From: an uncultured Methanosarcinales archaeon
GTDB lineage: Archaea; Nanobdellota; Nanobdellia; Woesearchaeales; DSVV01
Assembly (NCBI GenBank): GCA_964556185.1
Contig: CAZKVI010000003.1
Coordinates: 2,089-66,088, forward strand
Reading direction: 5' to 3'
DNA length: 64,000 nt
The notes under the pieces: generated by a model
The model's database searches: none
What the model saw: only the letters and a program-made list of their open reading frames with translations
What the model was told of the DNA's origin: nothing
In this document: piece after piece, positions 29,237-59,083 of the stretch
Position numbering within the stretch: position 1 is the stretch's first letter
Layout: every line of letters begins with the position of its first letter
Made by a program: the position numbers and the translations under genes

Positions 29237-29356
29237 CGGGCCCACGGGGATTCGAACCCCGGGCCTATGGCTGTCTGTGCGTAAGCAAAGACCCAGTGGA
29301 TCTTTGATCCTAACGCGTAAGAGGCCACCGCTCTAACCAGGCTGAGCTATGAGCCC
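29237..29356 (-). tRNA. tRNA-Lys(CUU) with a 45-nt canonical (37/38) intron
   Basis: Acceptor GGGCTCA/TGGGCCC. D arm GCTC-AGCCTGGTTA-GAGC. Anticodon stem GTGGC/GCCAT with loop CTCTTA|A. T arm CGGGG-TTCGAAT-CCCCG. G73. Confidence 0.75.
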
Positions 29357-54143: not shown

Positions 54144-54176
54144 CCAGGACATTAAAATAAAGAAAAGAGGGAATAA

Positions 54177-55389: not shown

Positions 55390-57348
55390 ATGAAAAACAA
55401 ACTTATTCTTATAATTTGTATCTCAATCTTTTTAATAATTCCATTATTTTCCACAATATCTTTTGCACAAGCTGGCCATTTAAAATTATTAGCAGTAACT
55501 TCTGAGACTAAAGGTGTAGAAGCAAACCTTGATTTAAGACTAATGCCAGGTACTGGAAGTGTTTTTATTGCAACATCTCCTTTAACAAAAATAGATACAC
55601 AATTATCTACAAGATTTGCTAAAGATATTGCATGCAAATTCCTCGAGAAGGATTGTTCAAATTTAGATTTCTTTTATACAATAACAAGTAATGCATCTAT
55701 TGTTGGTGGCCCAAGTGCAGGTGCAGCAATAAGTGCTTTAACAATAGCCTTACTTGAGGGCTATGAATTAGATGAAAGCTTTACAATAACAGGAACAATT
55801 AATTCAGGTGGTCTAGTCGGAAGTGTAGGTGGCTTAAAACCTAAAATAGAAATTGCTTCAAAAATTGGAGTAAAGAAAGTTTTAATACCTGCAGGAGAAA
55901 GATTTATCATAAATGAAACAATTATTTCTTTAAACACCACTGGATCAAATGCAACATTAAATTCATCAATCAATAATATTAACAATACAAACACTAATAA
56001 TAACACAACAAACACCAATTCAACACTTACTGCAACTATAAACAATACAATTGATTTATACGAATTTGGTAAAGAATTTGGAATAGAAGTAAAAGAAGTT
56101 GCAAATTTATATGATGTTATGTATGAATTTACAAATATAACTTATGAACAACTCTCAGGAGAAATCACACCAGATGATTGGTATATTGAAACAATGAGAA
56201 ATATTTCTAATGATCTTTGCGAAAGAAGCAATAACTTACAAAATGAACTTACTACACCTGAAAACACATCTAGTGATTACTTGTTTTACTCAACAGGATT
56301 AAATTTAACACAAAATGCAGAATCTGCATTATCTGAACAAGATTATTACTCAGCAGCATCATTTTGTTTTGGAGCAGCAGGTAAATTTGGTTATTTATTT
56401 CTAAAAAAACAAAATATGACAAACAATGAAACCTTAATAATACTTAATGAAACAAATGGTTCTATTGATTCAATAAGACAAAAAATAAACAATATTAATT
56501 TACAAACAATCACAGATATTCAAACTTATGTTATTGTAAATGAAAGATTAAAAGAAGCAGAGAACACATTAACTCTTGTTAATGATGCTCTTCAAGAATA
56601 TATTAATATGACTTTAACTTTAACAAATGCTAATATAACAGAAACAAATAACACAAAACAACAACTTGAACAAGTTCATGATATACTTTTACAAAAATTA
56701 GCTTATTCAATAGAAAGATTAAATAGTGCAGTTGCCTGGAGTAGCTTTTTCAATAAACCAGGTTCTACTTTTAACTTTAGCCCAGAATCTATTCATCAAT
56801 CATGTATAATAAAACAAAAAGAAGTAGAAGAAAGAATAAACTATATTCAAATTATTACTCTATTAGGTTTAGAAGGTGTAAAACAAGGTTTAGATGATGC
56901 AAAACAAGAAGAAAAAAGAGGTAATTTTATTCTTTGTCTTTTCAAAGCATCTAAAGCAAAAGCAGAAGCAGATACTGTAATGAGTATGATTGGAGCTAAA
57001 GAAGACTCAATTCAAGGTATTATTGATACAAGATTAACATTAGCTACAGATGTTATACTAAAACAACAACGCCAAGCTAGTTTCCCAATATTTGGTTATA
57101 GTTATTATGAATATGCAAAGACATTACAAATTGATGATCCTAGTTCTGCTTTGATATATTCTCATTATGCTCTTGAATTAAGTAACCTTGATATGTACTT
57201 TGAAAAAGAGCTTGATTTAGCTACTTTAGATACAGAGCTAACTAAAGATCCTGGCAATACATTCTATTTTATAATTGGATTTATTCTAGGAATATTAGTA
57301 ACAATACTCTATGTAATGAATTTTAAACCAAAGAAATCAAAAAAGTAA
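55390..57348 (+). CDS. secreted, C-terminally anchored protein with a Lon-type (S16) protease domain and no ATPase domain
   Basis: Signal peptide, then 'IVGGPSAGAAISALTIALLEG...TITGTINSGGLVGSVGGLKPKIEIASKIGVKKVLIPAGE' (Ser-Lys dyad context). An N/T-rich linker 'NNTNTNNNTTNTNST' follows, then a C-terminal TM helix and 'KPKKSKK'. Confidence 0.65.
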   Translation: MKNKLILIICISIFLIIPLFSTISFAQAGHLKLLAVTSETKGVEANLDLRLMPGTGSVFIATSPLTKIDTQLSTRFAKDIACKFLEKDCSNLDFFYTITSNASIVGGPSAGAAISALTIALLEGYELDESFTITGTINSGGLVGSVGGLKPKIEIASKIGVKKVLIPAGERFIINETIISLNTTGSNATLNSSINNINNTNTNNNTTNTNSTLTATINNTIDLYEFGKEFGIEVKEVANLYDVMYEFTNITYEQLSGEITPDDWYIETMRNISNDLCERSNNLQNELTTPENTSSDYLFYSTGLNLTQNAESALSEQDYYSAASFCFGAAGKFGYLFLKKQNMTNNETLIILNETNGSIDSIRQKINNINLQTITDIQTYVIVNERLKEAENTLTLVNDALQEYINMTLTLTNANITETNNTKQQLEQVHDILLQKLAYSIERLNSAVAWSSFFNKPGSTFNFSPESIHQSCIIKQKEVEERINYIQIITLLGLEGVKQGLDDAKQEEKRGNFILCLFKASKAKAEADTVMSMIGAKEDSIQGIIDTRLTLATDVILKQQRQASFPIFGYSYYEYAKTLQIDDPSSALIYSHYALELSNLDMYFEKELDLATLDTELTKDPGNTFYFIIGFILGILVTILYVMNFKPKKSKK

Positions 57349-57406
57349 TATCTATATTAGTTATTCTAAAAAGCTCTAAATAATCTTCTTTTAACTAGAA
57401 ACGGTT

Positions 57407-57518
57407 AAAAAACCCCGCAAACACTCCCGAAGGAATGTTTGCGCGGGAAAAAGAGGTGATCGTGATTGTTATCTGGCCAATGGCCAATAAATCCCCAAAT
57501 TAGCTTAAGATACCTACT
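57407..57518 (-). ncRNA. candidate small RNA (~112 nt) with its own BRE/TATA and a hairpin plus U6 terminator
   Basis: On the minus strand, 'GGAAAGGTTTAAATA' (57555-57541) lies 22 nt upstream of the predicted start. The 3' end is 'CCCGCGCAAACAUUCCUUCGGGAGUGUUUGCGGGG' followed by UUUUUU. No ORF is present. Confidence 0.35.
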
Positions 57519-57658
57519 TCATTTATTAAGACCATAATCATATTTAAACCTTTCCATTCTAGAGTGGTGACATTTGTTTAGGAGTTTAGAGTGAACTTGG
57601 GATACATACTTCATGTTACCGGAAAATTTATATACCTTATTTCAGAGAAATAAGACTT

Positions 57659-58192
57659 ATGGCCACTGGTAAGAATGTCGACAGAAGTTTATTACAAGTT
57701 GTACGTTATAGGGGTATTTTTGATATAGAAGCAGTCTATAAAGCTGTATATGATTGGTTGAGATCAAGAGGTATGGAAGTCCAAGAAACAAAATTCAAGA
57801 CATATGATAGGGCATATGGAAGAGAACATCAAATTAAATGGAGTGCTTGGAATAATGAAACTGACTTTGTAAAAAATTGGATATTTATCACATGGAGATT
57901 TATTGATGTTGTAGAATTAGAAGTAGTTAAAGATGGAAAAAAGAAAAAGTTAAGTAAATGTCAAGCAGATATTAGAATTCAACACGCAATGGAGTTTGAT
58001 TATAGTGAACGTTTTACAAAAACAGTGTACCAAATCCGCGCATTGGAATTTATTACAGGTTGGTTATTTAGAAAAAAGATAGATACTTTATGGGAAGATA
58101 AGTTAAGGTTTAAATGTTATGAATTGCAAAATGTTGTAAAAGAAACATTAGAAGCTCAAACAAAAGGTAATGAGCATTATGATGTATGGTAA
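57659..58192 (+). CDS. hypothetical protein, tandem paralog A
   Basis: The leaderless promoter 'ccggaaaatttatata' lies 24 nt upstream. It shares the 'W(L)R.(R/K)G...E..W.....V...V.V..DG.KKKL' pattern with the next ORF. Confidence 0.5.
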   Translation: MATGKNVDRSLLQVVRYRGIFDIEAVYKAVYDWLRSRGMEVQETKFKTYDRAYGREHQIKWSAWNNETDFVKNWIFITWRFIDVVELEVVKDGKKKKLSKCQADIRIQHAMEFDYSERFTKTVYQIRALEFITGWLFRKKIDTLWEDKLRFKCYELQNVVKETLEAQTKGNEHYDVW

Positions 58193-58214: not shown

Positions 58215-58715
58215 ATGGTCGAGAGAAGAATTGTTGTAGATACAATGAGGATGCATTACCAAGGTCTTCTTAATGTAGTTGAATTTATGGAATTTGTAGA
58301 TCGTTGGCTTCGTGAAAAAGGTTATTATAAAAAAATTGGCAGAACAGATGAAAAAGTTTTCAAAGAAAACAGACAAGTAGAAATTGAATGGGAACCTTGG
58401 AAAAAAGTTGATGAAAATGCAAAAATAGTTATTCAAATGAAATTCTTATTCACAAATGTAAAAGATGTTGTTGTAGAAAAAGACGGAATGAAGAAAAAAC
58501 TTCAACAAGCCAAGATCTCAGTTACAATGATGGGACTTATGGAATCAGACTGGGAACACAAATGGGAAAAAAGACCTTTTTACTTCTTATTCTTCTCAGT
58601 TATTGATCAGTTTGTCTGGAAAATTCATTCTGATAAGTACTTTGGTTTAGTAGCAGAAGACTGCACAGAACTAAGAAACGAAATGAAAGCTTTCTTGAAT
58701 TTGTATAGGTTCTGA
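58215..58715 (+). CDS. hypothetical protein, tandem paralog B
   Basis: 166 aa, 22 nt downstream of paralog A. The order of conserved residues is the same. Confidence 0.5.
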   Translation: MVERRIVVDTMRMHYQGLLNVVEFMEFVDRWLREKGYYKKIGRTDEKVFKENRQVEIEWEPWKKVDENAKIVIQMKFLFTNVKDVVVEKDGMKKKLQQAKISVTMMGLMESDWEHKWEKRPFYFLFFSVIDQFVWKIHSDKYFGLVAEDCTELRNEMKAFLNLYRF

Positions 58716-58773
58716 GTCACAATACAAACATTTTTAAATATTCTAAATTTCATTTGAAAAAGACCAGATATTT

Positions 58774-58938
58774 GTGGGGGTAGCCCGTAAGAAGATTCTT
58801 TGGGTTCCCTAGAGCAAAGTCTGGTCAAATGCGCAGGACTTAAGATACACTGAAGACAGCCTTCACGGCAAAGTCTTTGTTTTGAATTAGACATCCTGTC
58901 ACTTAGTGTGTTCGGGGGTTCGAATCCCCTCCCCCACA
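58774..58938 (+). tRNA. tRNA-Leu(UAA) with two introns (about 31 nt in the D arm and 48 nt at 37/38)
   Basis: Acceptor GTGGGGG/CCCCCAC with A73. D arm TAG[intron]CAAAGTCTGGTCAAATGC. Anticodon stem CAGGA/TCCTG with loop CTTAAG|A. Variable arm TCACTTAGTGTGT. T arm GGGGG-TTCGAAT-CCCCT. Confidence 0.8.
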
Positions 58939-59035: not shown

Positions 59036-59058
59036 GGTGGGGATCATCCTCCCCCACA
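59036..59058 (+). pseudogene. tRNA-Leu mini-helix remnant
   Basis: 'GTGGGGATCATCCTCCCCCACA' retains the acceptor 5' strand, a T-loop remnant and the acceptor 3' strand. 'cctcccccacatttt' repeats 58928-58942 exactly. Confidence 0.45.
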
Positions 59059-59083
59059 TTTTCTTTTTGATTTTGATTAAGAA

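Follow-up and report, generated by a model that had tools for sequence, protein, structure and literature searches.

Background

The small RNA sRNA41 of Methanosarcina mazei is reported to mask ribosome-binding sites inside polycistronic mRNAs (Buddeweg et al. 2017; PMC5867862). The mode of action that we propose for the RNA described here is similar, namely an intergenic archaeal small RNA that would pair with the Shine-Dalgarno (SD) regions of genes inside operons. sRNA41 has a specific operon target and is confined, as far as known, to one genus, whereas the present family extends across a whole DPANN lineage and carries an invariant seed that matches the 16S rRNA tail. No sequence or Rfam relationship between sRNA41 and the present family was found.

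Bacterial Hfq-type small RNAs, such as RybB and OmrA/B, combine a 5' seed with a Rho-independent terminator, and the "Hfq-binding module" consists of a U-rich stretch, a hairpin and a 3' U-tail. The RNA described here shares this layout: a single-stranded seed at or near its 5' end is followed by a U-rich stretch and then by a GC-rich terminator hairpin with its U-tail. Its promoter and host, however, are archaeal, and any chaperone would be an Sm-like archaeal protein. Archaeal termination requires a U-tract only, and the hairpin is therefore probably present for stability or binding. In Firmicutes, the C-rich-motif small RNAs (RsaE/RoxS, RNAIII) use an anti-SD-like, pyrimidine-rich motif to block ribosome binding on several mRNAs. 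Their motif is short (UCCC) and located in loops, whereas here a linear stretch of 8-13 nt is identical to the rRNA tail. CsrB/RsmZ-type sponges mimic the SD side (GGA motifs) and trap CsrA. Some members of the present family have tandem modules, which would likewise suit titration of a binding partner, although the present RNA imitates the anti-SD side and has no known protein partner.

The 3' tail of 16S rRNA (...GGAUCACCUCCU-3') is itself a point of comparison. The seed of the small RNA, AUCACCUC, is identical to part of it, and in the locus studied here the match extends over 9 nt (GAUCACCUC). Like the tail, the seed is single-stranded, and GAGGUGAU-type sites would be pairing partners for both. 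In contrast to the tail, the RNA is a separate gene of ~50-115 nt, has U4-5 rather than CU-3' after the seed, and is ordered from seed to hairpin, where 16S rRNA runs from hairpin h45 to tail.

To our knowledge, the non-coding RNAs of DPANN archaea are almost unexplored; the majority of these organisms are uncultured. We have analyzed a 64-kb stretch of archaeal DNA with 31% G+C (the window, numbered from its first nucleotide). Based on its sequence and on that of its relatives, we predict in it an independent small RNA gene with its own archaeal promoter on the minus strand, belonging to a large family of tiny, symbiotic archaea (Woesearchaeota/Nanoarchaeota) that Rfam 15 does not contain. 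Small regulatory RNAs that combine a seed with a terminator hairpin are already known as a kind of element. What is new is a phylum-scale DPANN family with a seed identical to the ribosome's docking sequence and a fixed place beside a secreted protease gene. The family is compact, is very strongly supported by comparison, can be described by a simple covariance model, keeps a fixed gene context and offers a clear, testable idea of function.

A predicted small RNA gene with its own promoter

The small RNA lies between a 652-aa gene (55390-57348, plus strand) and a leaderless 177-aa gene (57659-58192, plus strand). Most first genes in the window are leaderless and are preceded by (G)GAAAG-TTTAWATA, the first T of which is ~30 nt ahead of the ATG, and operon-internal genes have SD-type sites (GAGG/GGUGA). 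A preliminary description of the locus had proposed a minus-strand promoter of the local consensus, a GC-rich 15-bp stem with a UUCG loop and U6, and the lack of an ORF, and all three were confirmed. The promoter, GGAAAGGTTTAAATA, is read directly from the sequence at 57555-57541 of the minus strand and includes the TATA box TTTAAATA (57548-57541, minus strand). It fits the consensus of the window's leaderless genes and is unchanged in the 86%-identity relatives L010-L012. Given the spacing of that consensus, transcription is predicted to start near 57520 (+/-2 nt) and, with its end set at the U6, to yield a primary transcript of ~113 nt (57407-57520, minus strand). The only ORFs across the region are two mechanical ones of 30-31 aa, neither of which is kept in relatives.

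Four elements make up the 3' half of the predicted transcript, all on the minus strand. The seed AUCACCUC (57453-57460) is single-stranded and preceded by G57461, with which it forms the 9-mer GAUCACCUC (57461-57453, by direct reading). It is linked by a U5 tract (57448-57452; U4 or U5 across the family) to a hairpin (57413-57447) of 15 pairs, including one G·U, with one bulged G and a UUCG loop, the arms of which read CCCGCGCAAACAUUCC / UUCG / GGAGUGUUUGCGGGG. The U6 tract (57407-57412), again read directly, serves as the predicted archaeal oligo-U terminator and 3' tail. A terminator scan of positions 57000-58000 returned the hairpin site as its sole match, against 0.3 in shuffles, and the fold of the whole predicted transcript (-39.8 kcal/mol, z = -2.9) is more stable than those of shuffled sequences.

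The remainder of the transcript (57462-57520, minus strand) is a 5' extension specific to the window's lineage and alignable only with the close relatives L010-L012. It comprises a purine-rich stretch, AAGUAGGU (57519-57512, minus strand), and a small hairpin, UGGCC-AUU-GGCCA (57486-57474, minus strand), which L010-L012 retain with a different sequence. In 5/7 long forms the minimum-energy fold pairs the purine-rich stretch with ACCUCUUU; at this frequency the pairing is suggestive only, and we do not claim that a helix joining the 5' extension to the seed is conserved.

A family of co-varying modules on one strand

The 9-mer GAUCACCUC occurs once in the window and at least once in 20/100 shuffles, and alone is not significant; its significance comes from conservation in relatives rather than from the count in the window. 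Loci L010-L021 were obtained through homologues of the flanking protein at 86%, 56%, 54%, 52% and 51% identity. Contigs encoding an identical 177-aa protein also have an identical intergenic region, and are thus uninformative. All loci reached through flanking-protein homologues have [A/G]UCACCUC, U4/5, a hairpin and a U-run on the same relative strand. The module is found in every protein-reached relative, namely L008, L014, L016 and L018 (two copies each) and L020. In L020 the RNA is still beside the protease gene and the 177-aa gene is elsewhere. A contig search with the protease protein gave two distant loci only. L008, reached solely through the protease at 38% identity, has GUCACCUCUUUUUCCC, a hairpin and U4, and its RNA is convergent with and abuts the protease gene. 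The conservation in relatives that would be expected of an RNA gene, proposed beforehand as a check, was thus found.

A metagenome scan used the pattern ATCACCTCTTTT N0-1 CCYG N20-36 GGGTTTT, which leaves the inner stem unconstrained, and recovered at least 120 contigs with the module; 116-119 distinct instances are present among the matches listed. In these pattern-retrieved loci (at least 120) both seed conservation and the terminal GGGTTTT are forced by the pattern, and the unbiased support for the seed comes from ~10 protein-found lineages and from second copies found by a covariance model. Nearly every family member ends in GGG and three or more U residues. The covariance model, R1, describes the AUCACCUC-hairpin module and was built from 26 rows, the window sequence among them. 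The window contains the features that define it: AUCACCUC, U4-5, a hairpin closed by CC..GG and a U-tail. R1 matches the window copy along its full 59 positions with 60.1 bits (E = 3e-14); the next match has 16.7 bits, leaving a single copy in 64 kb.

The stems of relatives differ through compensatory changes. The 26-sequence seed alignment has 91.7% of its cells paired, 74 double-change cells and changes on both sides in 10/13 pairs; its covariation score is 0.66 against 0.22 when shuffled (0/500 shuffles as high), and slid controls reach at most 57% paired. An 88-sequence, model-based alignment has 94.5% of its cells paired and 339 double-change cells (0/500 shuffles as high), with changes on both sides in 11/13 pairs and at most 66% paired in slid controls. 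Module lengths among the matches listed change in steps other than multiples of three.

There are 230 G·U cells and 25 A·C cells, and pairing is 94.9% on the RNA strand versus 82.7% on the other. Loops are UUCG in 51/116 and GCAA or GCGA in 14/116 of the matches listed. In the family loci listed, perfect TTTAWATA boxes occur upstream 74 times on the RNA strand and twice in the mirrored control orientation. The G·U excess, the UUCG/GNRA loops and the same-strand upstream TATA boxes together fix the strand of the RNA. TATA-to-seed distances in the loci listed cluster at ~35, 65 and 85-90 nt, and the window promoter, 88 nt ahead of the seed, belongs to the ~85-90-nt class. From these distances, the RNA would in many lineages begin directly before AUCACCUC and yield a product of ~50 nt. 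The 5' extension is thus 0, ~30 or ~55-60 nt long depending on lineage, the window being in the longest class. The family-wide unit is the 3' ~60 nt only, with a stable hairpin of ~14 bp and freely varying sequence, the 5' ~60 nt being specific to the window's lineage.

The same loci bear on whether the feature is a plus-strand SD, GAGGUGAUC, followed by a short leader peptide ORF, or an ordinary terminator next to a chance 9-mer. In the window, GAGGTGATC-GTG does start a 13-codon ORF, a start codon lies 1 nt past GAGGTGAT in 24/115 copies, which is about four times the chance rate, and the 9-mer's lack of significance by itself in the window would fit coincidence. However, 63/115 copies lack a start codon within 10 nt, the remaining ORFs have a median of 10.5 aa and share no sequence, and in relatives the micro-ORF has 13, 6, 2, 8 or 9 codons or no start. 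In a plus-strand reading, A·C mismatches would replace the 230 G·U pairs and the UUCG loops would become CGAA, and the promoters are on the minus strand. The conservation of the seed also far exceeds the needs of a plain terminator. The ORF, G·U, promoter and seed evidence refutes both ideas as a family-wide explanation, and we regard them as barely credible for the locus. Both had been raised as caveats at the outset: chance is ruled out by a seed that is invariant across lineages, and antisense to a plus-strand SD by the copies that have no nearby start codon and by the short, unconserved ORFs of the others.

The original proposal of a discrete minus-strand small RNA gene with its own promoter is therefore supported at the level of sequence, since the hairpin co-varies, the G·U pairs fix the strand and promoters lie upstream on that strand. 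We consider it almost certain that a family of such small RNA genes exists, and the locus is best described as a predicted RNA gene that is conserved and structured, has a defined strand and an invariant single-stranded seed, and lies in a conserved gene context. A lone hairpin and a 9-mer, insignificant alone, can thus be the visible tip of a large family.

Known RNA classes

Rfam 15 (4227 models) searched at gathering thresholds over the whole window returned 4 tRNA matches only. At E<=10, positions 57300-57700 gave two noise matches of 10-13 bits, both on the hairpin, and twelve family loci gave no match at E<=1. Neither ARAGORN nor the Rfam tRNA model found a tRNA or tmRNA at 57400-57560. 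Box C (RUGAUGA) and box D (CUGA) of C/D box small RNAs are both missing from the transcript 57520-57407 and from the module. With respect to H/ACA small RNAs, the stem is continuous (15 pairs, one bulge), is followed by U6 and has no ACA. A type I toxin-antitoxin pair was looked for without success, the convergent gene encoding a 570-690-aa protease and no small conserved ORF lying opposite. For a riboswitch or attenuator, the next downstream gene is convergent in the window and in most loci, and on the same strand in a minority. A CRISPR array does not fit one copy in the window and tandem copies elsewhere that have no spacers and differing stems. Literature on the seed, on anti-SD mimic small RNAs and on archaeal RNA motif surveys yielded no description, although the wider literature may hold one, and none was found when an RNA-seq study of Nanoarchaeum equitans was looked for in the literature.

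The seed and its possible targets

The anti-SD-like segment, to which the preliminary description had drawn attention, is the best-conserved part of the family. What it had reported as a 9-nt match to the 16S tail is present as GAUCACCUC; the leading G is not conserved, the base ahead of the seed being U, A or G, and the invariant core is AUCACCUC with the U-tract. AUCACCUC is invariant in all relatives found through proteins, and 127/131 distinct model matches carry AUCACCUCUUUU, the four variant seeds being AACACCUC (twice), AUUACUUC and GUCACCUC. Second copies found by the model in the same loci, for which the exact pattern was not needed, nearly all keep the seed (exceptions AUUACUUC, AACACCUC and GUCACCUC). 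In 104/116 isolated modules among the matches listed, the minimum-energy fold leaves the seed unpaired. That the seed is invariant while the stem next to it varies freely suggests an invariant partner, the simplest being the SD consensus itself.

We tentatively propose that the RNA acts in trans and that its seed masks extended SD sites (AAAGAGGUGAU), a function to which we give somewhat less than an even chance. The seed and U-tract would pair with AAAGAGGUGAU sites of SD-led, mostly operon-internal genes, and the small RNA would compete there with the identical 3' tail of 16S rRNA and lower initiation at the paired sites. The hairpin and U-tail would end transcription and protect the 3' end. 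An Sm-like protein may bind the U-tracts on either side of the hairpin, the U5 tract being one possible binding site, and the ~60-nt 5' extension of the window's lineage may partly sequester the seed. An invariant ribosome-docking seed in an RNA would be unusual and would imply global translational control.

Three observations make SD pairing plausible: the SD-type sites of the window itself, the AAAGAGGTGAT sites at ORF starts and the precedent of sRNA41. In related loci, 55 sites outside the RNA genes are within one mismatch of AAAGAGGTGAT, and 22 of these 55 lie 0-10 nt ahead of an ORF start (ORFs of at least 60 aa); the seed and U-tract could thus form 11-12 pairs with real ribosome-binding sites. 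With the U-tract that follows it, the seed is complementary also to the A-rich stretch preceding SD sites. Target prediction in the 64-kb window found no convincing trans site, the best being weak (about -14 to -17 kcal/mol) and just two or three of them located at gene starts. A seed that matches every SD has no specificity, and the RNA would therefore have to be abundant or need a helper. SD masking also fails to explain the conserved linkage to the protease, since the protease gene is mostly leaderless. The weak targets in the window, the unexplained linkage and the lack of seed specificity are the reasons for our restraint. For the same reason of leaderless protease genes, we rejected the idea that the seed targets the ribosome-binding site of the protease.

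A broader and rather doubtful view is that of a lineage-wide DPANN housekeeping RNA that mimics the 16S 3' tail and acts as a general competitor for SD sites or for the tail-handling factors of late small-subunit maturation and initiation. If true, such a mimic would determine how far SD-led or leaderless translation prevails in these reduced genomes.

The invariance of the seed would also suit a decoy or sponge for a protein that binds the 16S 3' tail, working by mimicry of the tail and not by base pairing, and we think this unlikely. Candidate proteins would be late small-subunit maturation or initiation factors, e.g. Nob1, a RIO kinase or Dim2/Pno1, a KH-domain protein that binds the GGAUCACCUCC tail. 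The seed matches the 16S tail exactly and does not vary between lineages, and arrays of modules would raise valency as in multi-site sponge RNAs. L036 and L089 have tandem two-module arrays with a period of ~52 nt, the flank after the module begins another ATCACCTC in L062 and L086, and two modules lie ~82 nt apart in L016 and L018. In marine Woesearchaeota the RNA is divergent from a RIO1-domain kinase gene. However, this adjacency is limited to one closely related group (kinases 80-95% identical) and may for that reason be simple synteny, no binding partner is consistently encoded beside the RNA, and 16S rRNA has its tail after hairpin h45, where here the seed precedes the hairpin. If the RNA were a decoy instead, it would offer a handle on archaeal small-subunit maturation.

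Gene neighbourhood and host lineage

The 652-aa gene (55390-57348, plus strand) encodes a secreted, membrane-anchored S16 (Lon_C-like) protease, with Pfam Lon_C and NCBIfam LonB-type matches at residues ~59-177, a signal peptide, an NxS/T-rich region and a C-terminal membrane helix. PADLOC gave it a marginal BrxL match only (E 0.0013). The gene is convergent with the RNA, its stop codon 58 nt from the RNA 3' end, and it is leaderless in most lineages. Among the matches listed, a protease homologue (32-92% identity) is convergent downstream of the RNA in 64 loci and on the same strand in 3. The same-strand order with the RNA ahead of the protease gene is seen in L143, L057, L078 and L114. Crude ORF calls place many convergent downstream neighbours 0-80 nt from the RNA.

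As an unbiased sample, four protease homologues (37-41% identity) in NCBI assemblies labelled Woesearchaeota were picked through the protein alone. The RNA adjoins the protease gene in 4/4 of these genomes. In 3/4 the two are convergent (~0, 12 and 470 nt apart), and in one a tandem pair of RNAs lies 46 nt upstream on the same strand. No further RNA copy was found per ~21.7-kb locus of these four genomes.

This arrangement raises the question of whether the RNA is a cis-antisense partner of the protease gene, with read-through mRNA pairing with the RNA or transcription of the two colliding, which would determine where the protease mRNA ends, how stable it is or how much of it is present. The convergent order in the 64 loci listed, including L008 at 38% identity, and in three of the four genomes picked through the protein agrees with this, as does the tight spacing of many neighbours (0-80 nt). 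The protease strand of the window has just a T4 run ahead of the hairpin and lacks a T-run behind it, and read-through from the protease gene is thus likely. Nevertheless, the RNA is upstream of the protease gene on the same strand in L143, L057, L078 and L114, and copies in a second gene context keep the seed although no protease homologue was detected in the stretch examined. Antisense pairing would also need no invariant seed, since co-variation of the two strands is automatic. We consider cis-antisense action quite unlikely as the function of the family.

The second context, seen in ~11-14 loci from marine samples, places the RNA between a divergent RIO1-domain kinase gene and a GHMP kinase gene, the latter on the strand of the RNA and ~55 nt downstream. 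Homologues of the kinases in these loci are labelled Woesearchaeota or Nanoarchaeota, on which ground a thaumarchaeal origin of these copies was rejected.

On the other side of the RNA, the divergent upstream gene encodes a 160-210-aa protein in 49/99 loci among the matches listed, and a TtuA/NcsA-like zinc-ribbon protein is this neighbour in most lineages other than the window's. The proteins scanned have an N-terminal TtuA-type LIM/zinc-ribbon domain and weak similarity to NcsA/TtuA; no clear PP-loop motif was seen in the sequences read. TtuA/NcsA-family enzymes bind tRNA, and both the frequency of this neighbour and its domain would suit an RNP in which the RNA is partner or substrate of the protein, or control of the RNA's expression by it. 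Yet no such TtuA/NcsA-like zinc-ribbon gene occurs in the 64-kb window or in the RIO-context loci, where the RNA is unchanged, and we judge the association improbable as an explanation.

In the window, the divergent neighbour is the leaderless 177-aa gene of unknown function (57659-58192, plus strand), followed by a 166-aa gene (58215-58715, plus strand). It is local context outside the family-wide unit. Its homologues occur in the window's close lineage only, and a PDB sequence search with the protein gave no match. A tie between the RNA and this neighbour was rejected, given the confinement of its family to that lineage. The 177-aa gene beside the RNA in L014 belongs to a different family, the TtuA/NcsA-like one.

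A multi-copy or mobile element was likewise rejected: the window has one copy per 64 kb, each ~21-kb stretch of the four genomes has one locus, and a search of 2.9 million viral contigs gave one match to the RNA family. Homologues of the window's protease carry Woesearchaeota/Nanoarchaeota (DPANN) labels. The proteins nearest to the window's elongation factor 2 are euryarchaeal.

Gene neighborhoods of the RNA family

The commonest divergent neighbor of the RNA is a gene for a protein of 160-210 aa, present at 49 of 99 related loci identified through flanking proteins or a pattern scan of metagenome contigs (including L014:1816-2349, L037, L046, L049, L077 and L094). The N-terminus of this protein carries a TtuA-type LIM/zinc-ribbon domain, its similarity to NcsA/TtuA is weak and no PP-loop motif is obvious in it. 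One possibility is that this protein is related to tRNA thiolation enzymes and binds RNA but lacks their activity. The window does not contain a gene for this protein. There, the RNA is flanked divergently by a gene for a 177-aa protein (57659-58192, plus strand), followed by one for a 166-aa protein (58215-58715, plus strand). The two adjacent proteins appear similar to each other by eye. Neither was matched in Pfam, PADLOC or PDB, and the only marginal match for the 177-aa protein was to NCBIfam RimP (E = 0.008). The protein database contains 38 homologues for the 177-aa family. Among the loci analyzed, homologues of the two proteins were detectable only in the window's close lineage, and in some relatives the 166-aa gene occurs in additional tandem copies.

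In marine Woesearchaeota, the RNA takes a short form of ~47 nt and is flanked on one side by a RIO1-domain kinase gene and on the other by a GHMP kinase gene (L033, L059, L087, L090, L096, L101, L111, L128 and L139). The former is divergent from the RNA at a distance of about 120-130 nt, and the latter lies ~55 nt downstream on the same strand. The palindrome CTACTCTATAGTAG is found between the TATA box and the RNA start at these loci.

Locus L008 (CAZGIN010000021.1), which is titled 'uncultured Methanosarcinales archaeon', has the S16 protease gene paired with the RNA, an arrangement typical of Woesearchaeota/Nanoarchaeota. Either the RNA family reaches beyond DPANN, or this contig has been mis-binned.

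Module arrays, seed context and a candidate target

Two-module tandem arrays of the RNA occur at L036:6148-6248, L089:2118-2222, L062, L086, L016, L018 and L143:9830-9955. In some of them the modules directly adjoin each other (period of ~52 nt), in others they are ~82 nt apart, and the second module is degenerate in some cases (AACACCUCUUUCCC). Family-wide, the seed AUCACCUC, identical to the anti-SD part of the 16S rRNA 3' tail, is preceded by CAY-N in 24 of 115 copies, ~4x the chance rate; in the window, these four nucleotides are CACG (57464-57461). CAY-N at this position places a start codon 1 nt past GAGGTGAT on the opposite strand, and the ORFs that open from it are tiny and show no conservation.

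Just one gene in the local protease operon is SD-led, a 403-aa gene that precedes the protease gene. Its ribosome-binding region as read from the sequence, AAAGAAAAGAGGGAAUAAAUG (54150-54176, plus strand), shows 8 nt of complementarity to CCUCUUUU in the seed. The gene is a weak candidate target of the RNA.

tRNA genes of the window

The sole ARAGORN call in the window was a tRNA-Ala (50269-50342). The Rfam tRNA model detected three intron-bearing, minus-strand genes of 114-125 nt (29237-29356, 48650-48763 and 48773-48897), all missed by ARAGORN. A tRNA-Leu(UAA)-like gene can be read in a GC-rich intergenic stretch at 58770-58936 (plus strand), with at least two introns, an acceptor stem of GTGGGGG/CCCCCAC, the T-arm GGGGGTTCGAATCCCC and its own TATA box at about 58728-58741; neither ARAGORN nor Rfam at gathering thresholds made a call here. 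The 3' end of this putative gene, CCTCCCCCACATTTT, recurs ~120 nt downstream (59046-59062), and this second copy may be either the remnant of an attachment-site duplication or a piece of a tRNA.
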